From contig OMIN01000060.1 in assembly GCA_900299145.1 (NCBI GenBank), positions 20,902 through 84,901 on the forward strand: a stretch of DNA of 64,000 nucleotides, written 5' to 3'. This document shows positions 114-60,404 of this stretch, one piece after another. Each line of letters begins with the position of its first letter. Position 1 is the stretch's first letter. The notes under the pieces were generated by a model that was given only the letters and a program-made list of their open reading frames with translations, searched no databases and had not been told where the DNA came from. The stretch is from Betaproteobacteria bacterium (GTDB lineage Bacteria > Pseudomonadota > Gammaproteobacteria > Burkholderiales > SG8-41). Position numbers and translations under genes: made by a program.

Positions 114-146
114 TTTAAAAATATTACATTAAATCATATACTTACG
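114..146 (-). repeat. AT-rich intergenic repeat, degenerate copy
   Basis: The reverse complement reads CGTAAGTATATGATTTAATGTAATATTTTTAAA. Lies just downstream of the CoA-transferase stop. Confidence 0.45.
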
Positions 147-163
147 ATTATAGTGCTGCAGAG

Positions 164-2764
164 TTAAGTCACACCTTCTTCCGCCAGCTTGGCAATCTCC
201 GCAGTCGACATGCCAAGCAATTCACCAAATACATACTCGTTGTCTTCGCCATAACACGGCGCGCCGCGGTCGATGCGCCCGCCGATGTAGGCCGGGCTTT
301 CGTGCAGCTTGATCGGCACTTCCGCCACCGGCCACCGGCCGATTTTGGTGCCCGTCACTTCGGTGAGCCATTCGAGATGTTTCAACTGTGGATCATCGTC
401 GCAGCGGTTGCCCGCGTGCTGGCACACGCCTGCCGGCACGCCGGCTTTTTGCAACGCCAGCATCAACTCGTATTCATTGCAGTTTTTCGTCCACCCGGCA
501 ATGGCCTTGTCGAGCGCGTTGACGTTGGCCATGCGCGAGGCCAGATCCTTGAAACGCGGATCACTGCCCCACGCCGGATTGCCGGCCACCTTGAGCAAGG
601 CCTGCCATTCCGCTTCGTTAAAGCACGCCATGGTGATCCAGCGGTCATCGCCCGCACACTGATACACGTTATGCGGCGCGGCGGGCTTGAACGGTGAGGC
701 ATTGCCGATGCGCTTCCAGATGCGATTGTTTGCCGCCCAATCCAGCGTCGCCGTGCCAGTGATGAACAGACCTACTTCGGATTGCGACGCATCGATCCAT
801 TGCCCTTCACCGGTACGGTCGCGGTGATACAACGCAGAGAGCATCGCCAGGCCAAAGCTGTAGGCGCCCATCCAGTCGAGATACGAATATCCCCAGCCCG
901 CAGGCATCGCCGGTTCGGGCAGGCCTGACATTTCGGAGAGGCCCGCGAATGCATTAGCAATCGGCCCCACCGTGCGGAAGCGCCCATAGGTGCCCTGCGC
1001 GCCCATGCCAGACTGCGACACGTAAATTATGCCGGGCCGCAATTTCTGCAGCACGTCGTAACCCAGCCCCCAGTTGTTCAATACACCGGGCGAAAAACCT
1101 TCCGCGACGATGTCGGACATCTGGATCAGCTTCTTCACCATCTCCAGCCCTTTCGGGTGGCGCACATTGAGCGAGATACCGCGCTTGCCAGGGTTCTTGT
1201 TGTTGAACTGGCCGCCCATGTTGATGTCGGTTACGCCCTTCAGCGGCGCGGTGGCTTTCTCGCGCGCGGCACGGCCGCCTTCCGGCGCCATCGCGGCGAG
1301 GCGCGTGTCGGGATGCGACTTCAATTCGATCTTGATGCTCTCCGCACCAAACGCCGACAGGAAGCGCGTGCCGCCAGCGGAGGCCAAAAACCATGAAAAG
1401 TCGACGATGCGTATGCCCTTTAACGGCAGCGGCTTGCCGCGCCTGGAAGGCGGCTCTGCGGGATCGACCTTCGCCGTCGGGCTGATGGTCGGCGTCGGGC
1501 TTTGCGTTTTGGCAAATACCGTTGCCGCGTCTTCATTCAACAACGGCGCGCGGCGCCCCACCACCCATTCATTGGCGGTGCTGATCCACTTGCTCGTGGC
1601 GTAGCGGAATTTTTTGCCAAGTTCCGGATGCTCGATATCCGCTACGCTGCCGCGCGCTTCCCAGTGCTCGTCGGTGGCATTTTCGTCGGGCTTACGCAGC
1701 GGCGCGACCAGCAAACCGGCTTCCTGCATTTCGCGCCAAGGAAAGTTTTCGTAGGTAAAAGCGCGGACAAAGCGCTGCATCGCTTCCAGACCTTCATCGC
1801 GCTTGCCGCCGGCCGGGCCGGTGCCGGGCACATAGCGTCCACCGCGCGGCGCGCCTGCTGCCTGCGGGTTGTAGCCTTCCTCAAGGCCATATTTGGCGAG
1901 AATTTTTTGCAAACGTTCGGGATCGTCCGGCCGGTTACCCAGATTGGCCATCACCCAGCGACCGTCCTTCGTGTGCACTATGGTTGGTGCGGCAGAAATG
2001 CCTTCGCGCGCGTGGCGGCAGGTCTGACGCTGCACCACCGCTCGGCGCATTACCCACGACATCAAATCCACTTCCGTCGACACCGCCACCGATTGATGCA
2101 CGGCGCAGGACAACTGCTGCCCCTTGCCGGTACGAAAACGATACAGCAGTGCCGCCATGATCGACATGGTAAGTTGCTCGCCCGCAATATGGTAGGCATG
2201 CCACATCTGCGGTGCGATCGGCGGCAGATCGTATTTACCATCTGGGCCGGGGTCGTAGCCGCAGTTCATCATCACGCCGCCCATCGCAAGATGGATCAGG
2301 TCTGAACCTTTGAAGTGCGACCACGGGCCGTCATCGCCAAATGGCGTAACGCGCGCGTGGATTAGCCGGTCAGTGCTGGGCTTCAGGCCCAAGCCTTCGA
2401 GATAACCCTTGGGCGTGGATTCAAGCAAAATATCCGCACCCGCAAGTAATGTTCGGAACTTCGCCTTGTCCGCTTCCTGATTGAGATCGAGCACCACGGA
2501 TTTTTTGCCGCGGTTGTATTGCCAGAAAAACAACGAGCCGTTGGGATCGGGCTTGTCCTGATAAAACGGCCCGATGCTTCGCGTGCTGTTACCGCCGGGC
2601 GGCTCCACCTTGATCACGTCCGCGCCCAGACCCGCCAGCGTCGCGCCGCAGTATTCAGCCGTTTCGTCGCACAATTCGATGACACGTATGCCCGCGAGCG
2701 ACGGTGCGCCCTTGGCCTGCTTGCCGGAAACGGCATTGGTATTTTGTGCTGCCATGGTAATCAT
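164..2764 (-). CDS. Tandem-fused family III CoA-transferase (two CaiB/BaiF-type domains in one 866-aa chain)
   Basis: Full ORF. The family III N-terminal signature occurs twice: IRVIELCDETAEYCGATLAGLGADVIKVEPPGG at the N-terminus and GIRIVDFSWFLASAGGTRFLSAFGAESIKIE in the second half. A Pro/Ser/Thr-rich linker joins the halves. Confidence 0.85.
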   Translation of the reverse strand: MITMAAQNTNAVSGKQAKGAPSLAGIRVIELCDETAEYCGATLAGLGADVIKVEPPGGNSTRSIGPFYQDKPDPNGSLFFWQYNRGKKSVVLDLNQEADKAKFRTLLAGADILLESTPKGYLEGLGLKPSTDRLIHARVTPFGDDGPWSHFKGSDLIHLAMGGVMMNCGYDPGPDGKYDLPPIAPQMWHAYHIAGEQLTMSIMAALLYRFRTGKGQQLSCAVHQSVAVSTEVDLMSWVMRRAVVQRQTCRHAREGISAAPTIVHTKDGRWVMANLGNRPDDPERLQKILAKYGLEEGYNPQAAGAPRGGRYVPGTGPAGGKRDEGLEAMQRFVRAFTYENFPWREMQEAGLLVAPLRKPDENATDEHWEARGSVADIEHPELGKKFRYATSKWISTANEWVVGRRAPLLNEDAATVFAKTQSPTPTISPTAKVDPAEPPSRRGKPLPLKGIRIVDFSWFLASAGGTRFLSAFGAESIKIELKSHPDTRLAAMAPEGGRAAREKATAPLKGVTDINMGGQFNNKNPGKRGISLNVRHPKGLEMVKKLIQMSDIVAEGFSPGVLNNWGLGYDVLQKLRPGIIYVSQSGMGAQGTYGRFRTVGPIANAFAGLSEMSGLPEPAMPAGWGYSYLDWMGAYSFGLAMLSALYHRDRTGEGQWIDASQSEVGLFITGTATLDWAANNRIWKRIGNASPFKPAAPHNVYQCAGDDRWITMACFNEAEWQALLKVAGNPAWGSDPRFKDLASRMANVNALDKAIAGWTKNCNEYELMLALQKAGVPAGVCQHAGNRCDDDPQLKHLEWLTEVTGTKIGRWPVAEVPIKLHESPAYIGGRIDRGAPCYGEDNEYVFGELLGMSTAEIAKLAEEGVT

Positions 2765-3058
2765 CCCTTCAGACGTGACGTTTACGATTGGAGTTCAAGA
2801 AGTGAGACATGCGCGCCGTATGTTCCCGGATATTCTTGTATGCACCCGGATGCTCTCTTGTTATGGGGCTCAGTGCGCGACTTATCCCGCAATCATCAGA
2901 CTTGCAGCTTACACGTACCGCGCTATGGCGAAAAGCCGCACGCACCCTGCATGCCGCCGCGTTGGTGGCGCGCGCTTGCGTGATCTTGTATTCTTGTGGG
3001 CCACGCGTTCGCGTAATGGAATTTAATTGCGGGCGGCCAATCAGCAAAGGAGCAATCG

Positions 3059-3982
3059 ATGCACGGATCATTGGAGGATTTATACGTCGAAGTCGACATG
3101 TGTGCACCCGGCTGGGAGCGCATTATCGACAAAAGCCCGCCCGTTGAACTTCTCGCGCGCGACATCGTTTTCGGCGAAGGCCCGGTGTGGGACAAAAAGA
3201 ACAAACGCCTTGTTTTTGTGGACATCATCGGCGACACGATCTGGAGCTGGAAGCCGGGAGTCGGCAAGGAAGTCATTCTCAATCCGTCGGTAAAAGCCAA
3301 TGGGCTCGCTCTCGACCTGGAAAACCGCATTGTCGTCGCGGGCTGGGGCGGTCGCACCGTGTTCCGCCAGGAGCACGACGGCGCGTGGAAAACGCTGGCC
3401 GACAAATATGAAGGTAAAAAGCTCAACACGCCCAACGACATCGTGGTCACGTCCGACGGCGCAATCTGGTTTACCGATCCGCCCGGCGGCATGTACAACG
3501 TCGGCATGGTGGGGCCGGACGTGCAGCGTTATCTGGAATCGCAGCCGGTGTTTCGCATCTCGCCGGATGGCAAAAAGCTCTCGATAGTCACCGAGGACAC
3601 GGTGTATCCGAATGGTTTGTGTTTCTCGCCGGATGAAAAAATTCTCTACGTCAACTGCTCGCGTGAGCGCTTGATCCGCGCGTATGACGTGAAGCCCGAC
3701 GGTACGGTCGGCCCCAAGCGTTTGTTTTTCCAATACACCGGCCCGGAGCGCGGCGTGCCCGACGGCATGAAGTGCGATTCGGCAGGAAACGTATGGTGCA
3801 CCGCGCCCGGCGGCATCTGGGTGCATGGCCCCTCCGGCAAGCCGATATGCCGCATCAAAACGCCGGGGCATCACCCCACCAACATCGCGTTCGGCGACGA
3901 CGACTGGAAAACGATGTACGTCACCAACATCGGTTCAGTGACGCGCTTCCGGCTGAACATCGCCGGCGTGCCGTCGCGCTAA
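3059..3982 (+). CDS. SMP-30/gluconolactonase/LRE family protein
   Basis: 307-aa ORF with typical lactonase beta-propeller motifs (FGEGPVWD, NDIVVTSDGAIWFTDP, PNGLCFSPDEKILYV, PDGMKCDSAGNVW). AAAGGAG RBS lies upstream of the ATG. Confidence 0.85.
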   Translation: MHGSLEDLYVEVDMCAPGWERIIDKSPPVELLARDIVFGEGPVWDKKNKRLVFVDIIGDTIWSWKPGVGKEVILNPSVKANGLALDLENRIVVAGWGGRTVFRQEHDGAWKTLADKYEGKKLNTPNDIVVTSDGAIWFTDPPGGMYNVGMVGPDVQRYLESQPVFRISPDGKKLSIVTEDTVYPNGLCFSPDEKILYVNCSRERLIRAYDVKPDGTVGPKRLFFQYTGPERGVPDGMKCDSAGNVWCTAPGGIWVHGPSGKPICRIKTPGHHPTNIAFGDDDWKTMYVTNIGSVTRFRLNIAGVPSR

Positions 3983-4005
3983 GTCACGCCAAGAGGAGAA
4001 CAAAA

Positions 4006-4893
4006 ATGACCTGGAAATTTGAACTCGTAGCCGGCCCTTTCAAGGGCCGCACTGGTGGCCTGGCGTGGGATGGCAAAGGCATGTTGTGCAGCGCCGTGCA
4101 GGAAGAACGCGTGGTGCGTTACGACCCTGCCACCAGCAAGACCGATAACTTTCGCCGCTGGACAGGGCGTGTAAATGGCCTTGCCATCGCGAAGGATGGC
4201 GTATTCGGCGCGCAGGAAGGCGGCCGCCGTGTGATTCAGTTCATGAATGACGGCAGCGCGCGCCCCATCACCGAGTTTCTCGAAGGTGAGCGCCACAACC
4301 AGCCCTGTGACGTGGCCGTCGATAGCAAAGGCCGGGTGTGGATCGCCGATGCCTACAACGCGCAAGCGCCCTACGGCCCGCCCACCGCGCCGATACTGCC
4401 ACATGCGTCGGTATTGCGCGCCGACCCGCAAGGCCCCGGCAACTTTCGATTGAATCGCGTCACCCATGACACCGCAGGACCGCAAGCCGTCCTGCTTTCT
4501 GCTGATGAAAAAACGCTGTATGTCGCGGATGGCGATGCGGAGCGCGGCGACGTGTGCCAGCTATTAAGCTACGCCATCAATGAGCACGGCAGCGTGCCTC
4601 ACCATGGCAAAGTGCTGCTCAACTTCCAATTCGGCGAACGCGGCATCACCGGGCTGGCGCTGGCCAGCGACGGCAGCATCGTCGCCTGCATGGGCTGGAA
4701 AAAAAGCGGCAGCGGCGCGAATATCCTTGTCGTGTCACCCGGCGGCACGATACTGGAAACGCACGAAGCGCCGGCGGATCTGCCAATGCGCGTCGCATTC
4801 GGCGGCGCGGACTTGGGTGATCTTTACTTGAGCTGCGGGGACGGTGGGTTGTATCGCGCCAAGGGAATTGGGCGGCGTGGTGTAAAGCGGTGA
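4006..4893 (+). CDS. SMP-30/gluconolactonase-like protein (divergent paralog)
   Basis: In-frame ATG at 4006 is preceded by AAGAGGAG. The sequence is propeller-like (GLAWDGKGMLCS, NGLAIAKDG, PCDVAVDSKGRVWIADA, ITGLALASDGSIV). The longer track ORF from 3772 overlaps the upstream gene and looks like a spurious extension. Confidence 0.75.
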   Translation: MTWKFELVAGPFKGRTGGLAWDGKGMLCSAVQEERVVRYDPATSKTDNFRRWTGRVNGLAIAKDGVFGAQEGGRRVIQFMNDGSARPITEFLEGERHNQPCDVAVDSKGRVWIADAYNAQAPYGPPTAPILPHASVLRADPQGPGNFRLNRVTHDTAGPQAVLLSADEKTLYVADGDAERGDVCQLLSYAINEHGSVPHHGKVLLNFQFGERGITGLALASDGSIVACMGWKKSGSGANILVVSPGGTILETHEAPADLPMRVAFGGADLGDLYLSCGDGGLYRAKGIGRRGVKR

Positions 4894-5008: not shown

Positions 5009-5040
5009 ATAAGTATCTGTTTTTATTGCGATTTTATTTA
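5009..5040 (+). repeat. AT-rich intergenic repeat
   Basis: ATAAGTATCTGTTTTTATTGCGATTTTATTTA, within a 625-bp non-coding gap. Confidence 0.7.
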
Positions 5041-10210: not shown

Positions 10211-10240
10211 CGTAACTATTTGAATTATAACATTTATTTA
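10211..10240 (+). repeat. AT-rich intergenic repeat, degenerate copy
   Basis: CGTAACTATTTGAATTATAACATTTATTTA, between the dctM stop and the kinase gene start. Confidence 0.4.
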
Positions 10241-11548
10241 TGAAGGCTTTCTTATCAGCACTTCCGGTAGCCAAGTCACCAGAGCAGGGAACACGGTAAT
10301 CAGCGCAATTGCGATCAGCATCATCGCAAAAAATGGAATCGACGCGCGCGCGACATACGTACTGTCCTTGCCACTCATGGTTTGCAGCACAAATAGATTA
10401 AACCCCAGCGGCGGCGTCACCTCGGCAATTTCCACCAGCAACACGATGAATATGCCAAACCACACCAGATCGAAGCCCGCTTTCTCAATCATCGGAATCA
10501 CGATGGAAGTCGTCAGCACGATCATCGACACGCCATCGAGCGCCGTGCCCAGCACGACATAAATCGCCGCCAGCACCGCGATCAACATGTACGGGTTCGG
10601 ATTCATTGCCGCCACCCACTCCGCCAGCGCTTTCGGGATGCCGGTAAACGCCATGCACGAAGACAGAAACGCCGCGCCACCGAGGATGAATAAAATCATG
10701 CACGACAAACGCGTCGCGCCCATCAAACTGTCGCGAAACGAAACCCAGTTTAGGCCGCCGCTCACCGCTGCAATCACAAACGCACCCAGCACGCCAAACG
10801 CCGCCGCCTCAGTCGCTGTCGCCCAGCCTGCCGCCATCACCCACACAACAAAAATTATCAGCAACACACACGGGATGAGATTGCGGCTCAAATAGAGTTT
10901 TTGCCGGAATGTATAAGTATTTGATTCTACTGGTGTTTTTCCAGGATTCATCAACGCCCACACGATGATATATCCGGAGAACAACAGCATCAGCAATACG
11001 CCGGGAATAATCCCCGCGATAAACACCTTGAGGATCGACACTTCAGCTGCCACCGCGTACACCACCATGATGATCGACGGCGGCAGCAGAATGCCCAGCG
11101 TGCCCGCGCCGCACAGTGAGCCCAGACACGTTTTTTCGTCATAGCCGCGCGCCTTCAGTTCCGGCAGCGCCACCTTGGCGATGGTCGCGCAGGTTGCCGC
11201 CGATGACCCCGACACCGTGCCAAAAATCCCGCAGGCCAGCACGTTCACGTGCATCAGCCGGCCCGGCAGCCAGCCGAGCCACGGTGCGAGGCCCTTGAAC
11301 ATTTCCTCCGACAACCTGGTGCGATAGAGAATCTCACCCATCCAGATGAAGAGCGGCAACGCCGCCAGCGTCCATGACGCGCTCGAACCCCAGAACGACT
11401 GAAACAGATTCACATCCGGCGGCGTATTGGTAAAAAACTGCAAGCCCGCCCACGCCACCGCCGCCAGCGCCAGCGCGATCCACAGCCCGCCGAACAGCAG
11501 CACTAGCAACAGCGCCAGCAGGACGCAGGCAATGGCAAGCGTGCTCAC
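10238..11548 (-). CDS. dctM: TRAP transporter large permease subunit
   Basis: 436-aa polytopic membrane protein with typical DctM length and sequence character. Its start overlaps the stop of the upstream small permease gene by 4 nt. Confidence 0.9.
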   Translation of the reverse strand: MSTLAIACVLLALLLVLLFGGLWIALALAAVAWAGLQFFTNTPPDVNLFQSFWGSSASWTLAALPLFIWMGEILYRTRLSEEMFKGLAPWLGWLPGRLMHVNVLACGIFGTVSGSSAATCATIAKVALPELKARGYDEKTCLGSLCGAGTLGILLPPSIIMVVYAVAAEVSILKVFIAGIIPGVLLMLLFSGYIIVWALMNPGKTPVESNTYTFRQKLYLSRNLIPCVLLIIFVVWVMAAGWATATEAAAFGVLGAFVIAAVSGGLNWVSFRDSLMGATRLSCMILFILGGAAFLSSCMAFTGIPKALAEWVAAMNPNPYMLIAVLAAIYVVLGTALDGVSMIVLTTSIVIPMIEKAGFDLVWFGIFIVLLVEIAEVTPPLGFNLFVLQTMSGKDSTYVARASIPFFAMMLIAIALITVFPALVTWLPEVLIRKPS

Positions 11549-14077: not shown

Positions 14078-14113
14078 AATGACTATCTGATTTTATTGTA
14101 TTTTTTTATTTTA
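14078..14113 (+). repeat. AT-rich intergenic repeat
   Basis: AATGACTATCTGATTTTATTGTATTTTTTTATTTTA. Confidence 0.65.
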
Positions 14114-17356: not shown

Positions 17357-18419
17357 GCTTGCCGATAGCCTGCACCGCCGCCAGCGCGCGCTGGTATTCC
17401 GGCAACGCCTTGAGTTGTGCCATGTCGTGAACATTGCCGCGTCCGCGCATGCGTGCAAGCCGCGCCTGCCCGACAGCGGGCATGGTGTATTGCAAGCCCG
17501 CCAGCAGCTCATCGGCCGCGCCAGCGTCGTTGCACACCAGCACCATGTCGCAACCCGCCGTTAACGCGGCATTGGCACGCGCCACCACGCCACCTGCCCC
17601 CGCGCCTACCTTGGCGCCTTCCATCGACAGATCATCGCTGAAAATCACGCCGTCGAATTCAAGTTGCCCGCGCAGGATCCGCTTGAGCCACTTGGATGAA
17701 AACCCCGCCGGCTCAGCGTCGACTTGCGGATAAATCACGTGCGCGGGCATCACCGCACCGAGGCCGGAGCCGATCAGCCGCCGGAACGGAATCAGATCGC
17801 ATTGCTCGATATCCACGAACGATCGGTCATCCACCGGCACTTCGTGATGCGAGTCGGCGCGCACGTGCCCGTGCCCCGGGAAATGCTTTCCTACCGACGA
17901 CATGCCGCCCGACTGAAAGCCCTGCACCAGTGCCTGCGCCAGCGGCGCAATGATTTCCGGATCGGCGTGAAACGCGCGGTCGCCGATCACGCTGCTGCGT
18001 TTGTAATCAACGTCTAGTACCGGTGCGAACGTGAGGTCGACACCATGCGCGCGCAACTCGGTGGCAAGCACATAGCCGGTATCACGCGCCAGCGATTTTG
18101 CGGCAGCAGCATTTTTCTCCCAGGCTTTTCCCAATTCGCGCATCGCGGGTATGGCGGTAAAGCCGTCGCGAAAGCGCTGCACGCGCCCGCCTTCATGATC
18201 CACCGCGATCAGCAGGGCGGGGGTGCGCAGTGCATGTATCTCAGCGGTGAGTCGGGCAAGTTGCGCGGGCGATTCGAAATTGCGTGAAAACAGAATCACA
18301 CCGCCGGTGAGCGGATGCAGCAAACGCTGGCGGTCGGCCTCGGTGAGCGTAGTGCCAAGCACATCGAGCATCACGGGACCCAAGTGCAAGTCTTTGTTTT
18401 TATTCACCATTTTGTCCAA
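17334..18419 (-). CDS. nagZ: Beta-N-acetylhexosaminidase
   Basis: [33 protein letters not shown] and KHFPGHG motifs. The start is ambiguous: candidates are TTG 18419, ATG 18410, TTG 18383 and ATG 18371. Confidence 0.9.
18388..18415 (+). repeat. AT-rich repeat look-alike at the acpS-nagZ junction, overlapping the annotated nagZ start
   Basis: AAGTCTTTGTTTTTATTCACCATTTTGT. On the minus strand it would encode KMVNKNKDL of the longest nagZ ORF. Confidence 0.45.
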
Positions 18420-20382: not shown

Positions 20383-21288
20383 TTACGACAAACCCAGCCG
20401 GTCAAGCGTGCGGCGGTCATCAGCCCACGACTGCTTGACCTTCACCCACAGCTCTAGAAACACCTTGCCGCCCACCAGCTTTTCAATATCCGCGCGCGCG
20501 GCGCTGCCGATTTCCTTCAGTTTTACGCCACCCTTGCCAATGACGATGGCCTTCTGGCCGGGCTTGTCGACGAGAATCACCGCGCGGATTCGCGTGAGCG
20601 CGGGTTTTTCCTCGAAGGTTTCGATTTCCACCGCCGTGGAGTAAGGCAGTTCCTGCCCCAGCAAGCGAAACAGCTTTTCGCGGATGAGTTCGGCGGAAAT
20701 CGCACGCACGCTGGACGTGGTGACGTCCTCTGCAGGGTAGAGAAACTCGCGCTGAGGCAGCAGCGGCATCAGCGCCTGCAGCAGGGTATCCAGTTGCAAA
20801 CGGTTCTGTGCGGAGATCGGCACGATGGCCGCCGGATGATATGCCACATCCAGCGCCTGGATTGTCGTAAGTATTTGATTTTTATTACTTATTTTATCGA
20901 TCTTGTTGAGCGCGATCACCACTGGCGCAGCGCTGTCGGCAAGCCGCGCATGAATCTGCGGATCGGCGTGTTCACGCGCCGTCACGTCGATCAGCCACAG
21001 CACGGCATTGGCCTCTGACAACGCGTTCCTGAAACCGCGATCCATCGCCTTGGTAAGGCCCGTGTGATACTGCGTCTGGAAACCGGGTGTGTCGAGAAAT
21101 ACCAGTTGCGCCTCGCCCTTGGTCAAAATGCCAGCGATGTTTTGCCGCGTGGTCTGCGGGCGGCGCGAGGTAATGCTGATTTTCTGACCGACCAGCGCGT
21201 TCAGCAGCGTGGATTTGCCCGCGTTGGGGCGCCCGACGATGGCGACAAAGCCGCTGCGCGTCGAATTTGTGCCGGACGGCTCGCTCAT
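20383..21288 (-). CDS. era: GTPase Era
   Basis: Start at the ATG at 21288, 5 nt after the rnc stop. G1 motif GRPNAGKST, G3 DTPG, G4 NKID, and a C-terminal KH domain. Confidence 0.95.
   Translation of the reverse strand: MSEPSGTNSTRSGFVAIVGRPNAGKSTLLNALVGQKISITSRRPQTTRQNIAGILTKGEAQLVFLDTPGFQTQYHTGLTKAMDRGFRNALSEANAVLWLIDVTAREHADPQIHARLADSAAPVVIALNKIDKISNKNQILTTIQALDVAYHPAAIVPISAQNRLQLDTLLQALMPLLPQREFLYPAEDVTTSSVRAISAELIREKLFRLLGQELPYSTAVEIETFEEKPALTRIRAVILVDKPGQKAIVIGKGGVKLKEIGSAARADIEKLVGGKVFLELWVKVKQSWADDRRTLDRLGLS
20866..20900 (+). repeat. AT-rich repeat look-alike inside the era coding sequence
   Basis: CGTAAGTATTTGATTTTTATTACTTATTTTATCGA. On the minus strand it encodes IDKISNKNQILT immediately after the NKID G4 motif. 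Confidence 0.4.
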
Positions 21289-25286: not shown

Positions 25287-25320
25287 AGCTGACGAATCAA
25301 CTGCTGTAAATGTTTGTATT

Positions 25321-25572
25321 TTATCGCATTTTTGCAAGGAAATCCGTAACTGCCGCCTCGTCCAGAAAGTAGTGGCAAAGCTCTCGCCCGTCGGCTTCAA
25401 GCACCGGCACCAGCTCGCCATAGCGGGCCTCCAGCGCCGCTTCGCTGTCCACGTCAATGACGCTGATTTCAAATGAAAAACGGCCCTGCAGACTGCGCAG
25501 GGCCGCTATCATGTCGTCACACAGATGGCAGTAAGTGCGTGCGTAAACCGTCAGCACGCAAGCTGCCGCCAT
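25321..25572 (-). CDS. Glutaredoxin-family small protein
   Basis: 83 aa with a CHLC redox motif (YARTYCHLCDDM). It lies between degP and lepA, and its ATG overlaps the degP stop (TGATG). Confidence 0.75.
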   Translation of the reverse strand: MAAACVLTVYARTYCHLCDDMIAALRSLQGRFSFEISVIDVDSEAALEARYGELVPVLEADGRELCHYFLDEAAVTDFLAKMR

Positions 25573-31171: not shown

Positions 31172-31204
31172 CGTAACTATCTGTTTTTATTGATATTTTT
31201 ATGA
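31172..31204 (+). repeat. AT-rich intergenic repeat
   Basis: CGTAACTATCTGTTTTTATTGATATTTTTATGA, 4 nt from the ATG of the minus-strand opuB-like gene. Confidence 0.8.
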
Positions 31205-31217
31205 TGCAGCATGACCG

Positions 31218-32252
31218 CTACTCCGGCTTGATACCCGCCAGCTTTGCCAGCTTGCTGGCCTGCGCAACTTCGCTGCGGATAAACGCCGCAAACTGCTCCG
31301 GCGTATTGGTCTGCACTCCAAGGCCCTGCTTCAGAAAGAACGCCTTCATGTCCGCCGTATTCGCAGCCTTGCTGATTTCTTCGTTGAGCCGCGCGACGAT
31401 CGGCTTGGGTACGCCCGCCGGCGCGGAAACACCGTACCACGCCGTACGGTCAAAGCCTTTCAGGCCCGATTCATCCAGCGTGGGCAGCGACGGCACCGAC
31501 GGCATGCGTTTAGCACCGGTGACCGCAAGCCCGCGCAGCCTGCCGGCCTCGACCAGCGGCTGCGCCGCGGTGACACTCGGAAAACTCATGTCGATCTCTC
31601 CGGAAGCGACCGCCAAAATGCTGTCTGCGGAGCCTTTGAACGGCACATGCCGGATGTCCGCCTTCGCCATGGAATTGAACAATTCCGACGTCAGATGCAC
31701 CGTACCGCCCGCGCCACTGGTGCCGTACTGCAACTTGCCCGGCTGCGACTGCGCCAGCGCGACCAGCTCCTTGACGTTTTTCGCGGCCAGCGTCGGACGC
31801 ACAACCAGCATCATCGGCCCCGCCGTCACCAGCGACACCGGCGAGAGATCGCGGGTAATGTCCACCGCGAGCTTGCTGCGCAATGAGGGCAGCGCCGCGT
31901 CGTTGGACGACATCATCAACAGTGTATAGCCGTCGGCGGCCGCATTGGTCAGCCGCTCAAGGGCAATATAACCGCTGCTGCCAGGACGATTTTCAATGAC
32001 TACGGGCTGCCCGACGTTGTCGGACATTTTGCGCCCGACCGACCGCGCCGTAACGTCAGGCCCACCACCCGGCGGAAAACCCACGATGACGCGGATCGGC
32101 TTGTTGGGGAAAGCCTGCCCGGAAGCCTGTCCGGCGCCTGGCGACGGGGCCTGTGCCAGCGTATCCACCGCCCACACAAGGGGACACACGCCGGCGCACG
32201 TATTCCATAAAGCCCACCATCCGAGCCGTTTAAAGTCTGCCGTTCCCATCAT
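31218..32252 (-). CDS. Bug-family (TctC-like) substrate-binding protein
   Basis: Bug motifs (PNKPIRVIVGFPPGGGPDV, ENRPGSSGYIA, VPFKGSADS). Start placed at the first ATG (32252); the track ORF begins at an upstream TTG (32276). Confidence 0.85.
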   Translation of the reverse strand: MMGTADFKRLGWWALWNTCAGVCPLVWAVDTLAQAPSPGAGQASGQAFPNKPIRVIVGFPPGGGPDVTARSVGRKMSDNVGQPVVIENRPGSSGYIALERLTNAAADGYTLLMMSSNDAALPSLRSKLAVDITRDLSPVSLVTAGPMMLVVRPTLAAKNVKELVALAQSQPGKLQYGTSGAGGTVHLTSELFNSMAKADIRHVPFKGSADSILAVASGEIDMSFPSVTAAQPLVEAGRLRGLAVTGAKRMPSVPSLPTLDESGLKGFDRTAWYGVSAPAGVPKPIVARLNEEISKAANTADMKAFFLKQGLGVQTNTPEQFAAFIRSEVAQASKLAKLAGIKPE

Positions 32253-32347
32253 TGCCCTTTCTCTGGAAAGCTTCAATTCGCAAAATGACCGTGGCTACTA
32301 AATGCGCCCTCATTGTGGTTCTTCATTGTGGTTCTTCATTGCGGCTC

Positions 32348-33313
32348 TCACTGTGGTTCGATTCCCGCCTGCTTCACCACCTTGATCCACTTCGCCACTT
32401 CGGACTTGATATACGTCTCGTGTTCGTCGAGGCTGCTGCCGACGGGCTCCGCGCCCTGCTCCAGCAGAAATTTGCGGTTCGCCGGATCGCGCAGCGAAGT
32501 CACCAGCGCCTGATTCAGCCGCTCACCAATGGCGCGCGGAATGCCCGCCGGGCCGATAAAGCTGAAACCGCTGCTCACCACGTAGCCCGGCATGCCGGCC
32601 TCGATCATGGTGGGAATGTCTTTGGCGAAGCCCGCGCGCTTGTCGCCAGTCTGCGCGATGAGTTTGATGCGCCCCTGCTGCACGTGGCCCGACACCAGCG
32701 GCAGACTGGAAAACTGCAGTTGCACATGGCCCGCCACCAGATCGATGATAGCCGGGCCCGCGCCTTTGTAAGGTACGTGAACCACTTTCGTGCCGCCCAT
32801 CGCGTTAAAGAGTTCGAGTGACATGTGACCAACTGTAGCGCGCCCGGATGACGAAGCAAACAACTGGCCCGGCCGCGATTTCGCCAGCGCAATCAGTTCC
32901 TTGACGTTTTTCACCGGCAGCGACGGATGCAGCACCAGCCCTGACGGCACATCCACGATCAACCCCAGCGCGGTGAAATCCTTCACCGTGTCGTACGGCA
33001 TTTTGCGGATCAGCGACGGATTGATCACAAAGCTCGCGGCCACGAGCCCGACGGTGTAACCATCAGGCGCACTTTTCGCGATGATCTCGCCGCCGATGGT
33101 GCCGCCGCCACCCGCGCGGTAATCAAACACCAGTTGCTGGCCGAGAAACTCGGTCATCTTCGGTTGCAACAGGCGGAAGAACACGTCGCTGTTGCCTCCG
33201 GGCGCAGCAGGATTCACCACGCGGATGAGTTTGGCCGGGAATTGTTGCCCCAGTACCGAGCCGCTAAATGCTCCCGCCACCGCCATCCACCAAACGCCAC
33301 TACGCCACATCAT
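32348..33313 (-). CDS. Bug-family (TctC-like) substrate-binding protein
   Basis: 321 aa with a signal peptide and the motifs FPAKLIRVVNPAAPGGNSDV, DYRAGGGGTIGGE and VPYKGAGPA. Confidence 0.9.
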   Translation of the reverse strand: MMWRSGVWWMAVAGAFSGSVLGQQFPAKLIRVVNPAAPGGNSDVFFRLLQPKMTEFLGQQLVFDYRAGGGGTIGGEIIAKSAPDGYTVGLVAASFVINPSLIRKMPYDTVKDFTALGLIVDVPSGLVLHPSLPVKNVKELIALAKSRPGQLFASSSGRATVGHMSLELFNAMGGTKVVHVPYKGAGPAIIDLVAGHVQLQFSSLPLVSGHVQQGRIKLIAQTGDKRAGFAKDIPTMIEAGMPGYVVSSGFSFIGPAGIPRAIGERLNQALVTSLRDPANRKFLLEQGAEPVGSSLDEHETYIKSEVAKWIKVVKQAGIEPQ

Positions 33314-33322: not shown

Positions 33323-33358
33323 GAAAAATTTATCAATAAAAACAAATATTTACAATCG
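33323..33358 (-). repeat. AT-rich intergenic repeat
   Basis: The reverse complement reads CGATTGTAAATATTTGTTTTTATTGATAAATTTTTC, about 10 nt upstream of the Bug gene ATG at 33313. Confidence 0.75.
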
Positions 33359-38800: not shown

Positions 38801-38832
38801 TTTAACTATCTGTTTTTATTGATTTTTTACGA
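38801..38832 (+). repeat. AT-rich intergenic repeat
   Basis: TTTAACTATCTGTTTTTATTGATTTTTTACGA, 12 nt upstream of the capA-like GTG. Confidence 0.8.
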
Positions 38833-39995: not shown

Positions 39996-40034
39996 GATTT
40001 TATTCAATAAAATCAAAAATTTACAAAATAATTA
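39996..40034 (-). repeat. AT-rich intergenic repeat, degenerate copy
   Basis: The reverse complement reads TAATTATTTTGTAAATTTTTGATTTTATTGAATAAAATC. Lies between the convergent capA-like and qor genes. Confidence 0.45.
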
Positions 40035-44162: not shown

Positions 44163-44200
44163 ATTAAAAAATATTTAATAAAAACGAATACTTATGATAG
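44163..44200 (-). repeat. AT-rich intergenic repeat
   Basis: The reverse complement reads CTATCATAAGTATTCGTTTTTATTAAATATTTTTTAAT. Lies between the vWA gene stop and the SBP gene start. Confidence 0.7.
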
Positions 44201-48478: not shown

Positions 48479-48500
48479 CCCTCTCCATCTAGCCAACAAT

Positions 48501-48526
48501 GCATTTAAAAACAGATAGTTACAGAG
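48501..48526 (-). repeat. AT-rich intergenic repeat, left half only
   Basis: The reverse complement reads CTCTGTAACTATCTGTTTTTAAATGC. Confidence 0.55.
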
Positions 48527-49879: not shown

Positions 49880-49914
49880 CAGTAACTGGCTGTTTTTATT
49901 AATTTTTATCGATA
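49880..49914 (+). repeat. AT-rich intergenic repeat
   Basis: CAGTAACTGGCTGTTTTTATTAATTTTTATCGATA. Confidence 0.65.
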
Positions 49915-50636: not shown

Positions 50637-52283
50637 ATGGCTGCCGCACCTATCGATTCATTAATCACCACACCTTCGGAAGCAGCGTCGGCGACGTCGA
50701 CGTTGCTGGCGGCCCTGCGCGATCCCGCGATTTACCCACATGCCGTGGAACGTATCGAGGTACTGGAAACCCACATTTCCTGGGTGATTTTGACCGGGTT
50801 GTATGCTTACAAGATCAGGAAGCCGGTGAACCTGGAATTTCTTGATTTCCGCACGCTTGAATCGCGGCGGCACGACTGTGAAGAAGAACTGCGCCTGAAT
50901 CGCCGACTTTCACCTGCCCTGTACGCAGGCGTGGCGCCGATTACCGGCGATCCCGCGCATCCGGAGTTCAACGGCGGGGGCCCGGTCATCGAATACGCGG
51001 TGAAGATGCGCGAATTTCCGCAACAGGCGCTGGCAAGCCGCTTGCTGGACAGCAGCGCGCTGAATGCCACCCACTTTGATGCTTTAGCCAAGCGCCTGGC
51101 AGCCTTTCATCTGGAGGCGGGAATTGCAGCCACCGGCTGCCCTTACGGCAGTCCCGAATCGGTCCTAGGGCCAGTGCGCGACAGTTTCGATCAGATCGGA
51201 CGCCTGCTGCCAGATGGCGCAGATCAAGTGCGTCTGGCTGAACTGCGTGCATGGACTGAGCGGGAATACCATGCGCTTTGGTCCCATTTCCGCGTGCGTC
51301 AGGCGCAAGGAAACGTACGCGAATGCCACGGCGACCTGCATCTGGAAAATATCGTGATGCTGGACGGCGCACTGATACCGTTCGACTGCATCGAGTTCAG
51401 CCCAGCGATGCGCTGGATCGACGTCATGAGCGACGTGGCGTTCCTGTTCATGGATCTGACCCATCACGGACGCACCGATTTTGCCTACCGCTTCCTCAAT
51501 GCCTATTTGGATGCCAGCGGCGACTATGCGGGGCTGGCCGTGCTGCGCTTTTACCGCGTTTATCGCGCGATGGTTCGCGCCAAGATAAGTGCCATACGCT
51601 CATGGCAAGGCAGTGGCAGCGCTAAGGATTGCAAGCTGAAAGCAACCCGCGACTACATCGATCTCGCTGGCCGCTTCGCCCGGGATGGACAAGCCGCGAT
51701 GGTTCTGATGCACGGACTCTCAGGTTCCGGCAAAAGCCAGCTCGCGCAATACCTCTCAGACCATTTGGGCGCTGTCCAGTTGCGTTCCGACCGCGAGCGC
51801 AAACGGCTATGCGGTCTGGCCCCCATGGCTAGCAGTGATTCACCACCCGCCGCTGGCATTTATTCCGCCAACCTGACCGAGGCAACCTACCATCGATTGC
51901 TTGATCTCGCACGTCTGTGCTTGGTTGCGGGCCATGTGGCTGTCATCGACGCCACCTGTCTCAAACGCTGGCAGCGTGACCTGTTCCGTCGGGAAGCCAC
52001 CGCACGGGGCATTCCCTTTGTGATTGTTCAAACGACCGCACCTGAGGCCATTTTGCGCGCACGAATCGCCGCGCGTCTGGCGGCTCACGACAATGTTTCG
52101 GAGGCCGACCAGGCAGTACTCACACACCAACTGGCCCAAGTCGAGGCACTAACCCAGGAAGAATTGACACTCACCCTGCCTATTGACACAGCGGGTGGTG
52201 ATGCCGTGAGCTGTGCAATGGCGGCTCTTCCCCGCGTGCGCGCCAGGCTTGCCGAAGAACACATCAAGCCAAAGCCCCAGTAA
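50637..52283 (+). CDS. Bifunctional-type protein: aminoglycoside-phosphotransferase-like kinase fold plus C-terminal P-loop (AAA_33-like) kinase domain
   Basis: 548 aa. The N-terminal half has ETHISWVILTG, YKIRKPV and HGDLHLENIV (APH/protein-kinase-like catalytic loop). The C-terminal half has the Walker A GLSGSGKSQLA. The start codon is uncertain. Confidence 0.75.
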   Translation: MAAAPIDSLITTPSEAASATSTLLAALRDPAIYPHAVERIEVLETHISWVILTGLYAYKIRKPVNLEFLDFRTLESRRHDCEEELRLNRRLSPALYAGVAPITGDPAHPEFNGGGPVIEYAVKMREFPQQALASRLLDSSALNATHFDALAKRLAAFHLEAGIAATGCPYGSPESVLGPVRDSFDQIGRLLPDGADQVRLAELRAWTEREYHALWSHFRVRQAQGNVRECHGDLHLENIVMLDGALIPFDCIEFSPAMRWIDVMSDVAFLFMDLTHHGRTDFAYRFLNAYLDASGDYAGLAVLRFYRVYRAMVRAKISAIRSWQGSGSAKDCKLKATRDYIDLAGRFARDGQAAMVLMHGLSGSGKSQLAQYLSDHLGAVQLRSDRERKRLCGLAPMASSDSPPAAGIYSANLTEATYHRLLDLARLCLVAGHVAVIDATCLKRWQRDLFRREATARGIPFVIVQTTAPEAILRARIAARLAAHDNVSEADQAVLTHQLAQVEALTQEELTLTLPIDTAGGDAVSCAMAALPRVRARLAEEHIKPKPQ

Positions 52284-52313
52284 TTTTTATTTAAAAACAA
52301 ATACTTATATGAG
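52281..52313 (-). repeat. AT-rich intergenic repeat
   Basis: The reverse complement reads CTCATATAAGTATTTGTTTTTAAATAAAAATTA. It starts at the stop codon of the kinase-like gene. Confidence 0.65.
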
Positions 52314-55766: not shown

Positions 55767-55805
55767 CATTTAAAAATATCAATTAAAACAAATACTTACA
55801 AAAAA
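55767..55805 (-). repeat. AT-rich intergenic repeat
   Basis: The reverse complement reads TTTTTTGTAAGTATTTGTTTTAATTGATATTTTTAAATG. Lies between convergent genes. Confidence 0.75.
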
Positions 55806-55826
55806 CCTTTTCGCCCTTCAGTCGCC

Positions 55827-58325: not shown

Positions 58326-58368
58326 GTTGCCCTGCCCTTACCTGGGGAACGGCATTGCAGCGCACAAC

Positions 58369-58617
58369 TCACGAGGAATCAGCGCATCGAAACAAAGCCG
58401 AGATTTCCGCCTGGGCGTTTTCCAGATCTTCCTCGCAGGCATCTCCCGGCTGAATGTGATGGTATCGATCCGCGCAGTAATACGCCGGGACATCAGCGAG
58501 GTCCATCTCGTCGCTGCTGTCCCATTCGGGAATCTGTGTCGAGTAAGCGGCTACGGGCTGAACCAGCCCGGCCCTGGTAATCCGTGATTTCGTCTTGCCA
58601 GAAGGTTGGGGGCGCAT
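58369..58617 (-). CDS. Hypothetical small acidic protein upstream of the P-type ATPase
   Basis: The in-frame ATG at 58617 has a GGAG 7 nt upstream and lies about 70 nt downstream of an FNR-type box. 82 aa, no recognised family. Confidence 0.4.
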   Translation of the reverse strand: MRPQPSGKTKSRITRAGLVQPVAAYSTQIPEWDSSDEMDLADVPAYYCADRYHHIQPGDACEEDLENAQAEISALFRCADSS

Positions 58618-58652
58618 CGAAGTCTCCGCGTTGACGGGAATGTCCTGATTGC

Positions 58653-58693
58653 ATGCTAGGCAAGCACCGCCGGCGGGTATTGACACAGATCAA
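58653..58693 (-). promoter_or_regulatory. FNR/Anr-type class II promoter for the small protein and P-type ATPase
   Basis: TTGACacagATCAA at 58680-58693 (9/10), a 21-bp spacer, then TAGCAT (58658-58653, minus strand). Confidence 0.65.
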
Positions 58694-58823
58694 TCATACC
58701 AGCGGCGGCGCGAAGCGCCAGGTCGATTGGTCGAGATCAACACTGAAGGCATAGCAGAAGGCTTGAAATGAAAGAACCGGGTGTAGTTGTCACGCGGTTA
58801 TGCGATTCTCACTACTGCCTGGA

Positions 58824-60368
58824 TCACGATGCCTCCCTTTGTCCGGTGCCAAAGGCCGGGATGACCGCCTCGATCCGGGTCCCCTCGGCCGCGGAGCTGC
58901 TGACCACCAGATCACCGCCCAGCACATGGGCGCGCTCAAGCATACCAAGCAGGCCAAACGCGCGCGCCTTGCGCGTGTCTGCTTCGCTAAAACCGCCGCC
59001 GTTATCGACGATACGCGCCACCACGTTGCCACCGCGGCGCAGCACTTCAACCCCCACGTGATCCGCACCCGAATGCCGCGACACATTGGTCAATGCTTCC
59101 TGCACGATGCGAAAGATGGCAGTAGCGGCATCGCCGCCCACACCAAGATTTTCGTCGGGAATATCCAGATCGACGGGGATGCCGCTGCGTTCCGTAAAAG
59201 TCTGGATCAGCCATTCGAGCGTGGGCACCAATCCCAGATTATCGAGCATCACCGGCCGCAGATCGGCGGCAATTCGCCGCACGGACGCCACGGTAGTATC
59301 GATGAGTTGCTTCATGCCGTCGATACGTTTTACCAGTGATTCCCGCGCCGAACCAGGATTCAGATTCAGCTCGGCCTCGATCGCGGCGACATCCATCTTG
59401 AGCGCGGTCAGCACCTGCCCCAGTTCATCATGCAACTCACGCGCGATGCGGGCTTTTTCTTCTTCGCGTATGGTTTGCAGTGCGAAAGACAATTCCCGTA
59501 GCCTGTCCTGCGATTCGCGCGCCTGCGCTTCAGCCCGCCGATGCACTCGCAACAGATGGTGCAATTCTGCTTCCATGCGCAGGCGCTCGGTGATATCACG
59601 ATAGATGGCAGAAACACCTGCCACCGAACCGTCGCTGCGCTTGACCGGCGAGATTGTAACTTCGACGTCGACTTCGCTGCCGTCCTTGCGTTGGCGCCTG
59701 GTTTGACGCTTGATGATGGCCTCGCCGCGCATCGCGCGATCGCCCAGGCCAATCTGATCCGAAGGGACAGTGGCCGAATACAGCAGGCTGACGTCGCGGC
59801 CCAATACTGCTTCCGGCTCGTAGCCAAACATCCGTGCCGCCGCCCGATTCCAGGACAATATGGCGCCGTCAGCACGCCGGCTTACTATCGCGTCGGAAGA
59901 CGAGTCTATTATGTCAGACTGAAAGCGCATTTTTTCCTGAATGCGTGTGCGCTGAGTGACATCACGCAAAATTGCGGTATAAAACACGCGGCCTGAGCAT
60001 TCTGTGCACGAAATCACGGCATCAACCGGGAATTCTTCACCGTCGGCACGCAAACCCGTCACTATCCGATCGCCATCCATGGCGCGGACCGAATTGGCTG
60101 ACGCTTGGGCGAAATCCACCATGTGCCGCCAGTGCGCCGCGCGAGCGCGCGTGGGAATGAACCTCTCCAGCGGCCCGCCGATGGCCTGTGCCGCATGGCA
60201 GCGAAACATCGCTTCCGCCTCGCGGTTAAACGACACTATGGTTTGCGTTTCATCGACGGTAATTATCGCCAACTTCACCGATTGAACGATCGCCGCCAGC
60301 TGTGCTTCCTGCAACGCCGTCACGCGTACGCTGTTGGCCACTGGCGGCTCCGGCACACCTGCAGTCAT
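58824..60368 (-). CDS. Cytoplasmic PAS-PAS sensor histidine kinase (HisKA_3/NarX-type dimerisation domain)
   Basis: 514 aa with two PAS modules, the H-box ARELHDELGQVLTALK and an HATPase_c domain (DNGGGF, GLLGMLERA). No TM segments. No response regulator gene in the window. Confidence 0.9.
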   Translation of the reverse strand: MTAGVPEPPVANSVRVTALQEAQLAAIVQSVKLAIITVDETQTIVSFNREAEAMFRCHAAQAIGGPLERFIPTRARAAHWRHMVDFAQASANSVRAMDGDRIVTGLRADGEEFPVDAVISCTECSGRVFYTAILRDVTQRTRIQEKMRFQSDIIDSSSDAIVSRRADGAILSWNRAAARMFGYEPEAVLGRDVSLLYSATVPSDQIGLGDRAMRGEAIIKRQTRRQRKDGSEVDVEVTISPVKRSDGSVAGVSAIYRDITERLRMEAELHHLLRVHRRAEAQARESQDRLRELSFALQTIREEEKARIARELHDELGQVLTALKMDVAAIEAELNLNPGSARESLVKRIDGMKQLIDTTVASVRRIAADLRPVMLDNLGLVPTLEWLIQTFTERSGIPVDLDIPDENLGVGGDAATAIFRIVQEALTNVSRHSGADHVGVEVLRRGGNVVARIVDNGGGFSEADTRKARAFGLLGMLERAHVLGGDLVVSSSAAEGTRIEAVIPAFGTGQREAS

Positions 60369-60370
60369 GG

Positions 60371-60404
60371 CATAAAAAATATCAATTAAAACAGATAGTT
60401 AGAC
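60371..60404 (-). repeat. AT-rich intergenic repeat
   Basis: The reverse complement reads GTCTAACTATCTGTTTTAATTGATATTTTTTATG, ending 2 nt before the histidine kinase ATG. Confidence 0.8.

Follow-up and report, generated by a model that had tools for sequence, protein, structure and literature searches.

The 64,000-nucleotide stretch of contig OMIN01000060.1 analysed here (hereafter the window) has a guanine-plus-cytosine (GC) content of 59.5% and carries a family of short AT-rich repeats, most of them lying between genes. Pfam annotation of the window returned many genes for TctC/"Bug" receptors and for TRAP transporters, and a conserved cluster, rpoE-rseAB-degP-glrx-lepA-lepB-DUF4845-rnc-era-recO-pdxJ-acpS-nagZ-udg-uvrC, occupies 14.8–29.4 kb on the minus strand; a gene content of this kind is indicative of Burkholderiales. 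Several freshwater metagenomes contain contigs with 99.9% identity to the window, and look-ups with RpoE and PdxJ gave only such strains, which are uninformative on the evolution of the motif and on filled or empty sites. No exact match to the protein encoded at 33350–34312 is on record.

The repeats share the 27-bp consensus TAAsTATyTGTTTTTATTGATATTTTT, in which a near-invariant 10-bp core is followed by two T-rich tracts. With up to three mismatches allowed, the consensus proposed by eye in a preliminary description of this DNA matches six sites in the window and none in 100 dinucleotide-preserving shuffles. An iterated position weight matrix scan of the 64 kb yielded 18 copies, 10 on the plus and 8 on the minus strand, with a mean spacing of 3.5 kb and covering 0.76% of the window. 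Rescoring against an AT-rich background, chosen to be harsh, left 16 of the 18 at 16.7–31.4 bits, where 64 kb of random DNA of purely AT-rich composition would be expected to yield 0.05 scores of at least 16.7; the two at 10914 and 25307 were borderline at about 13 bits. The copies are listed below with these scores.

118..144, minus strand: copy TAAGTATATGATTTAATGTAATATTTT, flanked by the CoA-transferase stop codon (164) and by an open reading frame (ORF) leaving the left end of the window; 20.9 bits.
5010..5036, plus strand: copy TAAGTATCTGTTTTTATTGCGATTTTA, in the 625-nt convergent gap between an SGL2 gene (plus) and a TctC gene (minus), with 3 mismatches to the consensus drawn by eye; 25.4 bits.
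10213..10239, plus strand: copy abutting the dctM stop, with the start of a Ser/Thr kinase gene 90 nt downstream; 16.7 bits.
10914..10940, plus strand: borderline copy with left half TAAGTATTTGATT, within the dctM coding sequence as in-frame codons, with a perfect YAANNNNTTGATW match; 13.6 bits.
14080..14106, plus strand: copy TGACTATCTGATTTTATTGTATTTTTT, in the gap between a 4HBT thioesterase gene and a hypothetical ORF; 22.4 bits.
18387..18413, plus strand: copy at the acpS/nagZ junction, the minus strand of which gives the GTG/ATG and the first codons of the NagZ N-terminal extension; 22.8 bits.
20868..20894, plus strand: copy embedded in the era coding sequence; 23.2 bits.
25307..25333, plus strand: weak copy overlapping the glrx stop, 15 nt before a canonical terminator hairpin and upstream of lepA; 13.1 bits.
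31174..31200, plus strand: perfect-consensus copy (0 mismatches) filling the 50-nt spacer between a TctC stop (31218) and the start of the opuAC ORF (31167); 30.6 bits.
33326..33352, minus strand: copy whose TAA is the stop of a polysaccharide deacetylase gene, with the ATG of TctC 32348..33313 12 nt further on; 27.6 bits.
38803..38829, plus strand: copy with 2 mismatches between an RraA-like gene and a PGA_cap gene (GTG start 15 nt downstream); 28.7 bits.
39997..40023, minus strand: copy in the convergent gap between the PGA_cap (plus) and ADH (minus) genes, both Pfam-supported, 18 nt from the ADH stop; 18.2 bits.
44168..44194, minus strand: copy between a VWA/CoxE stop (10 nt away) and an SBP_bac_5 gene, in reverse orientation and followed by a GAGGAG Shine-Dalgarno sequence and ATG; 27.2 bits.
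48495..48521, minus strand: copy with a degenerate right half, 70 nt upstream of a DksA/TraR-type gene; 18.8 bits.
49883..49909, plus strand: copy 48 nt downstream of the stop of a CBS-domain gene and 206 nt upstream of a Usp gene; 19.3 bits.
52281..52307, minus strand: copy overlapping the stop of an AAA_33/APH kinase gene, upstream of alanine dehydrogenase; 23.5 bits.
55772..55798, minus strand: near-perfect copy (1 mismatch) 29 nt downstream of a P-type ATPase stop; 31.4 bits.
60375..60401, minus strand: near-perfect copy (1 mismatch) ending 6 nt before the ATG of a PAS/HisKA_3 kinase gene; 29.1 bits.

All 14 copies listed in the preliminary description are among these, shifted by 0–6 nt; their occurrence in both orientations is borne out, and 18 copies against about none expected per 64 kb mark a genuine sequence family beyond base composition. 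Four further copies had been overlooked, at 10914, 18387, 20868 and 25307, and all of them touch coding sequence, so that the family is intergenic as described for most of its members, the dctM-internal and era-internal copies and those at the 5′ end of nagZ and the glrx stop being the exceptions. A "right-half fragment" placed at 62776 is not a member, its best score being −14 bits. A gene drawn at 31201..31929 on the plus strand probably does not exist, the evidence favouring TctC at 31218..32276 on the minus strand, and the perfect copy at 31174 thus sits between two tandem minus-strand genes.

Aligning 164 copies from the window and related genomes extends the consensus to wwTTTTy(A/G) TAAsTATyTG TTTTTATT GAw wTTTTT tt. 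Positions 1–3, 5, 9, 10 and 12–14 are almost invariant, with G10 fully so, and the right third is more variable. The 10-bp core is followed by one-sided T-rich blocks (positions 11–18 and 22–27) lying about 10 bp, or one helical turn, apart. The information content, taken from the 49 copies that had not been retrieved by pattern, comes to about 36 bits for the 27 bp; covariation is seen between positions 4 and 8 (odds ratio 5.5, p = 5e-4).

The element has no fold of its own: the minimum free energy of five copies, with both strands taken for the one at 31174, ranges from 0 to −1.3 kcal/mol, with z-scores of −0.5 to +0.7. Hairpins are also absent from its flanks, which at about −7 vs −10 kcal/mol for controls are less structured than random windows. 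Lacking a hairpin, the motif is neither a terminator nor a repetitive extragenic palindromic (REP) element, as had been concluded from its want of a GC-rich stem, and the view that it is not a CRISPR array likewise stands. Terminal inverted repeats match at only 3 of 10 positions, and target-site duplications occur at chance counts for k = 2–5 under three definitions of the boundary. A search of the whole window against Rfam 15 at the gathering threshold returned 0 matches. Within 40 nt on each side of the 164 copies no ATG, Shine-Dalgarno sequence or hexamer stands at a fixed distance, and sigma-70-like sites in the window number 23 vs about 22 expected from shuffles, with 3 of the 18 copies overlapping one.

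Comparison with known signals led to a series of rejections. The orientation of the motif is weakly linked to GC skew (73:47), a link too weak for a polarity signal like KOPS or Chi. The remaining comparisons were made by eye: only a CTGT half-site recalls LexA, Fur was rejected, as was a DnaA box with a 7/9 match, and the DNA unwinding element 13-mer of Escherichia coli has a like counterpart in ATCTGTTyTATT, yet about 1000 dispersed copies rule out origins. The motif has TAAGTAT..TTGT in common with Tus-Ter, but a fork trap is excluded by the number of copies and their occurrence in both orientations. The inner ATAA-N6-TTAT dyad of dif/pdif is missing, direct repeats of the PhoB/OmpR/ArcA type would be spaced at 9 bp and not 10–11 bp, LysR T-N11-A boxes are off by one, the right half is too variable for a TATC-N10-GATA dyad, and integron attC and CRISPR were rejected.

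The position of the motif relative to genes was examined for 145 copies with a codon-usage gene caller checked against Pfam-supported genes. Only 16 of them are intragenic, about 89% being intergenic. The classifiable intergenic copies between co-directional genes run with the genes in 44 cases and against them in 42, while convergent genes flank 16 copies and divergent genes 10. The density per kb of gap is 2.14 copies in co-directional, 2.64 in convergent and 0.73 in divergent gaps, a depletion of about 3-fold in the last class. The same trend is seen at given gap lengths: gaps of 30–99 nt carry a motif in 26% (co-directional), 33% (convergent) and 0% (divergent) of cases, and those of 100–249 nt in 30%, 38% and 11%. 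In the window itself, 14 of 30 co-directional gaps (≥30 nt), 2 of 6 convergent gaps and 0 of 6 divergent gaps hold a copy. Where the co-directional gap is long, the motif tends towards the upstream stop codon. Copies had been reported to precede start codons in the same relative orientation; about as many opposite-facing copies lie next to starts (31174, 44168, 52281 and 18387), so this regularity does not hold. Random orientation, depletion from divergent gaps, the absence of hairpins and sigma-70-like sites at the level of shuffles together give no support to a directional promoter, UP element, terminator or RNA element, and the suggestion of an UP-element-like promoter module is likewise not supported. 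The behaviour of the motif is that of a feature at the DNA level which shuns promoter-only regions, and we consider it probable that it is a recognition motif for a protein acting on DNA rather than a promoter, a terminator or an RNA element.

The 18 copies of the window are spaced more evenly than under uniform placement (coefficient of variation 0.43, largest gap 5.9 kb, P ~1e-4), and the coding-embedded copies of nagZ and era fall in an 11.2-kb core operon that has almost no intergenic room. The era copy reads on the minus strand AAA ATA AGT AAT AAA AAT CAA ATA CTT, immediately after the G4 NKID motif; the GC content at third codon positions of era is about 72%, comparison with other Era proteins shows no indel, and relatives retain the AT-rich codons. 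In nagZ the start codon is part of the motif, which also encodes an N-terminal extension, MNKNKYLH, in front of the conserved GPVMLDV (18380–18419, minus strand), and in the related loci L150 (11121–11170) and L151 the nagZ ATG overlaps the acpS stop as ATGA, which implies translational coupling. In one orthologous group a gene's final eight codons lie in the motif. Coding copies use rare AT-rich codons in segments under little constraint, namely the linker of era, the N-terminal extension of NagZ and C-terminal tails. Some operons have a spacer reduced to stop, motif and ATG, in both orientations and conserved in orthologs, and some cistrons lack a Shine-Dalgarno sequence because the motif fills the spacer.

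The distribution of the motif was surveyed with a 21-mer pattern, TAASTATYTGTTTTWATTGAT, in one genome per species (596 Gbp), which gave at least 111 stretches. About four fifths of the matches listed come from uncultured Burkholderiales/Betaproteobacteria metagenome-assembled genomes (MAGs) with a GC content of 55–68%, often with many contigs per MAG. The remaining listed matches are singletons in Pseudomonas, Gilvimarinus, Marinimicrobium, Desulfovibrio, Rhizobium and others; such singletons are compatible with chance, from which 10–30 are estimated in 596 Gbp, and were therefore not counted as family members. Viral contigs of IMG/VR showed no enrichment, with 19 unrelated single-copy matches, mostly in AT-rich contigs, of which 8 belong to one phage family. 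A literature search on the motif sequence and the topic found no description of the motif.

Relatives for the comparison of orthologous junctions were retrieved by protein and not by motif. The motif is conserved at orthologous positions in these relatives and persists there between genera, which is the opposite of what the preliminary description had named as a refutation. The copy at the acpS/nagZ junction is present in 6 of 7 genomes (copies in L112, L114, L148, L149 and L150), the era-internal copy in three (including L112 and L149), the copy at the 3′ end of glrx in four, with the same variant sequence in L148, L150 and L151, the copy at the DUF350/TctC junction in two, that at the polysaccharide deacetylase/TctC junction in three (including L171 and L172), and the copy upstream of opuAC in four (including L171, L172 and L173). 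The upstream neighbours of opuAC differ among these four, being TctC, TctC, a divergent MazE-PIN module and CobW, and homology begins exactly at the motif. The idea that the copies mark module boundaries is correct in part: in several comparisons they lie at synteny breakpoints, and they also lie inside conserved operons and genes, so that the motif marks more than the borders of cassettes. Three comparisons made for a filled and an empty orthologous site (L107 with L037, the window with L051, and the window with L172) all proved to be synteny breakpoints. In L171 a helicase gene (AAA_11/12) and a PIN-MazE toxin-antitoxin module are inserted upstream of opuAC (2801–5904), and in L172 a DUF900 gene and an rve transposase gene stand in place of lepA (11873–13500); both inserted segments are free of the motif.

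Individual genomes prefer their own forms of the motif, among them the dialects TAACTATCTG, TAAGTATTTG and TAAGCAT... The form TAACTATCTG accounts for 6 of 16 copies in the window genome vs 9 of 127 elsewhere (p = 0.002), and C at position 5 for 4 of 5 copies in L172 vs 2 of 49 elsewhere (p = 2e-4). The C5 copies of L172 include orthologs of T5 copies of the window, which means that the same change took place in parallel at independent loci.

Judged from its sequence, from which any function is predicted, the motif is a dispersed genomic recognition motif, of the kind that includes the DNA uptake sequences (DUS) of Neisseriaceae, the uptake signal sequences (USS) of Pasteurellaceae and REP elements. 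To our knowledge, orientation-free genome-wide recognition motifs with dialects are known only as the uptake sequences of two host-associated families. We invoke a sequence-specific reader of double-stranded DNA together with a homogenising force because the data call for both, and with USS as the closest precedent, and with dialects, occupancy and a permissive location as in DUS, an uptake-type motif maintained by drive is ranked first. We tentatively suggest, therefore as a candidate and no firmer, that the motif is a sequence of the uptake-signal kind, maintained by a homogenising force that acts genome-wide. It might, on the same tentative footing, represent a third independent family of uptake signals, the first outside Neisseriaceae and Pasteurellaceae, situated in uncultured freshwater Burkholderiales, unusually long, AT-rich and endowed with dialects.

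Under this proposal the motif would be a recognition sequence read on double-stranded DNA and not on RNA, and a force acting at once on all the copies within a genome would maintain about one copy per 3.5 kb throughout a clade of uncultured freshwater Burkholderiales. A surface-exposed component of the DNA-uptake machinery would prefer motif-bearing fragments, and repeated uptake and recombination would spread and homogenise the motif by molecular drive, letting it settle where it is harmless, that is in the 3′ regions of genes, operon spacers, convergent gaps and loosely constrained coding stretches. Species dialects would follow drift in the specificity of the receptor. We infer both the uptake receptor as the putative reader and a drive in place of selection for a cellular function.

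The likeness to the two known families is one of sequence features. USS is an asymmetric motif of about 30 bp with a core of about 10 bp and two one-sided T-rich tracts about one helical turn apart (PMC3458573), and the motif described here shares this build, a very high copy number in either orientation, placement in intergenic DNA and tolerant parts of genes, presence across a family-level clade and a base composition that contrasts with that of the host genome. The contrast is reversed, since USS has a GC-rich core in an AT-rich genome and our motif an AT-rich core in a GC-rich genome. DUS, whose hosts are likewise Betaproteobacteria, occupy about 1–2.5% of the genome and form species dialects differing by a single base, of which two can coexist in one genome (PMC3630211); the dialects and an occupancy of about 1% are matched here. 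At positions 8–10 an invariant yTG is reminiscent of the CTG core that is essential in DUS; as about 80% of the motif copies have T at position 8, the CTG itself is not conserved here. DUS also differs in being a 12-mer that is common within coding DNA and often forms inverted repeats in terminators. Uptake sequences number hundreds to thousands per genome, and competent cells of the known families take up DNA bearing them by preference and have a specific receptor of the ComP/ComN type. The uptake-related elements termed DUES "accumulate in permissive genomic regions", about half of them at terminators and thus at the 3′ ends of genes (bioRxiv 10.1101/2025.10.24.684340), a description that the gap distribution of our motif matches.

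Several observations weigh against such a role. The information content of about 36 bits, with conservation over some 27 bp, is far above that of known uptake sequences, which have a core of 9–12 bp and in the case of USS four critical bases. DUS and USS are abundant inside genes, whereas about 89% of our copies are intergenic; inverted pairs forming terminators are absent, there are no flanking hairpins, and a single close inverted pair was found among about 145 copies (L110, copies 60 nt apart). The even spacing becomes marginal (P 0.02–0.09) when the 15 intergenic copies are compared with a random choice among the available gaps. The motif is the sole conserved block upstream of opuAC in four genomes, in one of them in a divergent gap, and this conservation could reflect a local regulatory role. 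In four orthologous groups of MAG loci the motif is identical at 27 of 27 positions beside scrambled flanks, a figure that is partly ascertainment because both members were fetched with the exact pattern; the only unbiased pair agrees at 20 of 27.

A possible but less likely explanation is a high-affinity site for an abundant architectural protein, either of the IHF/HU family or a lineage-specific nucleoid protein, which would bend the DNA or separate transcription units as a boundary or roadblock; selection would keep the sites for that function and the dialects would express co-evolution of protein and site. No match to IHF had been recognised in the motif, a view that needs some correction. 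Read on the reverse strand, its conserved half is AAA(A/T)CAA-ATAs-TTA, preceded about 9 nt upstream by an A-tract; this is how an IHF site is laid out (WATCAA-N4-TTR with a 5′ A-tract), and a single systematic mismatch separates the half from the IHF consensus WATCAANNNNTTR. That consensus is matched perfectly by 11 and with one mismatch by 119 of the 164 copies, and three of its four perfect matches in the window fall inside motif copies. The footprint of IHF is about 30–35 bp, as is the length of the element. The mismatch is however systematic, with T at position 11 in 149 of 164 copies (AACAA instead of ATCAA) at a base that is well conserved in IHF sites, and by our estimate roughly 5% of arbitrary AT-rich 27-mers would match to this degree by chance. 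Strong conservation extends to the "N4" and spacer positions, with dialect changes falling in N4, which the specificity of IHF would not impose, and the many exact-consensus copies with about 36 bits are unusual for sites of nucleoid proteins. Regulation by such a protein agrees with the motif staying with opuAC through its three different upstream contexts and with its kept positions at orthologous junctions; its depletion from divergent promoter regions is not what a regulator would lead one to expect. A motif stands 5–63 nt upstream of the −24 element in 3 of 5 plausible intergenic sigma-54 promoters, which is not significant against a background of about 27% (p ~0.12). These three promoter-like sequences (GG-N10-GC) lie at L110 1481–1613, L007 4688–4753 and L094 2674–2778.

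It is rather improbable that the motif is a selfish non-autonomous short repeat, copied in trans by an unspecified enzyme or spread by gene conversion, which like REP elements or MITEs (miniature transposable elements with inverted repeats) would survive only at harmless insertion sites. Such an origin would account for the many exact-consensus copies beside a continuum of decayed ones, for subfamilies enriched in single genomes and the covariation of positions 4 and 8, for the depletion from promoter-only and short operon gaps as seen with REP and MITE elements, for copies at or next to synteny breakpoints, and for operon spacers that can be little beyond the motif. REP elements and the related bacterial interspersed mosaic elements (BIMEs) of enterobacteria, including the IHF-binding RIP/BIME-1, are likewise dispersed extragenic repeats of about 30–40 bp found mainly downstream of genes, in co-directional and convergent gaps and rarely in promoter regions, and the resemblance of the conserved half of our motif to an IHF site recalls RIP/BIME-1 in particular. 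REP elements are, on the other hand, imperfect palindromes with GC-rich stem-loops and a link to RAYT transposases (IS200/IS605-like), and their families usually differ between species; the motif has no stem, also occurs inside genes, and keeps one consensus across many genera and across MAGs of 55–68% GC. The Correia/NEMIS MITEs of Neisseria are high-copy intergenic elements at gene borders, some of which carry IHF sites and which can be co-transcribed, yet they measure 100–150 bp, and at 27–35 bp the motif is shorter than known MITEs. It also has neither their terminal inverted repeats (3/10), nor target-site duplications above chance, nor a hairpin, and its coding copies arose without indels. 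No recurrent, transposase-like or cognate gene lies beside or between paired copies, the ten close pairs enclosing unrelated metabolic genes, and no clean filled and empty orthologous site was seen in the comparisons above. Parallel shifts of orthologous copies to the species dialect call for gene conversion, not for transposition.

We regard it as quite unlikely that the motif is an expression signal, whether a promoter or UP-element module or an AU-rich leader for translation independent of a Shine-Dalgarno sequence. Positions 18–26 read TGATATTTT and resemble an extended −10 element when the consensus is read by eye, and TTGATA resembles a −35 hexamer; several genes begin 0–15 nt from a motif, too close for a Shine-Dalgarno sequence to fit in, an arrangement seen in either orientation and kept in orthologs, and upstream of opuAC the motif is the sole conserved block, also in a divergent gap that must hold a promoter. 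The arguments already given on position all apply here: orientation is random with respect to the downstream gene (44:42), the motif is most frequent in convergent gaps, where no gene starts, and about 3-fold depleted in divergent ones, nothing stands at a fixed distance from the 164 copies, no −10 element included, predicted sigma-70-like sites overlap 3 of 18 copies and do not exceed shuffles, and some copies lie inside genes. An ordinary promoter is also found upstream of one copy: textbook sigma-70 promoters lie directly upstream of a motif copy in L025 (~4270–4330) and L029 (~1040–1100), with TTGACA-N17-GATAAT in the latter, so that the lineage evidently uses ordinary promoters; in both loci the motif would form the start of the 5′ untranslated region. 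A canonical intrinsic terminator, GGGCGCCC...GCGCCC with a T-run, lies between glrx and lepA (~25240–25290, minus strand), 15 nt from one copy, and indicates that the genome uses ordinary terminators as well; it is conserved across genera (L148–L151 and L173) and separates the rpoE-degP-glrx unit from lepA-lepB.

A nucleation or silencing site of the H-NS type, for which the AT-rich island in a GC-rich genome and the sequence TTGATAAATT in copy 33326 (9/10 against the high-affinity H-NS motif TCGATAAATT, tCGATAAATT-like) might speak, is scarcely credible, as the resemblance noted earlier does not extend to the family, whose consensus there is TTGATATTTT with at most 7/10 and in the variable right half only, the invariant left half being without similarity. 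H-NS-type binding needs no specific sequence of 27 bp, the motif avoids promoter regions, and it lies in core housekeeping operons (the rpoE-uvrC cluster) and inside era, and not preferentially in foreign DNA. H-NS sites and UP elements share with it AT-richness, T or A tracts and a partial likeness in the right half; they are promoter-associated and depend on orientation or position, in contrast to the long unrelated core and random orientation of the motif.

If the uptake reading is right and a third family exists, frequent natural transformation with self-recognition would be expected in abundant lake bacteria, and the presence of the motif in widespread uncultured freshwater Burkholderiales would make sequence-biased transformation, or an equivalent genome-wide homogenisation, testable in free-living bacteria. 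Even if its reader should be a nucleoid protein, the motif offers a compact marker of high information for binning and classifying these MAGs; its dialects can help to delimit species, its absence can help to detect foreign DNA, and it flags recombination junctions. For annotation it matters that several gene starts and stops in these genomes lie within or against the motif.

Some further observations were made along the way. The phage family with 8 of the IMG/VR matches (GC ~45%; L153, L154, L157, L158, L163, L164, L168 and L167, the match in L167 lying at the locus end) has an identical segment of about 87 nt in which the 21-mer is followed by the palindrome TTGATGTTAATCAA; each contig has it once, and it bears no relation to the Burkholderiales family. 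The 21-mer also lies a few nt from the apparent 3′ end of a tRNA gene, a typical position for the integration of islands, in a gammaproteobacterial MAG (L012, ~6405) and, less certainly, in a Rhodospirillaceae MAG (L021, ~1113). In the window, positions 48000–63635 hold a cluster resembling a low-oxygen or dormancy stress locus, of lower GC than the rest of the window and with atypical codon usage, with genes for a universal stress protein, a CBS-pair protein, an AAA_33/APH kinase, alanine dehydrogenase, a cytochrome c, a rhodanese, a P-type cation ATPase, a HisKA_3 kinase with a PAS/haem-like sensor, and a second Usp. The minus-strand gene at 164–2764 encodes an 866-aa protein in which two stretches match the CoA-transferase family III domain, apparently a tandem fusion. 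At 8814–10123 on the minus strand a Ser/Thr kinase ORF and a cNMP-binding ORF overlap by 31 nt; in the 99.9%-identical L138–L142 the same region is called as one 425-aa kinase-cNMP protein or as 2–3 pieces, and this difference is a frameshift polymorphism or an assembly error.

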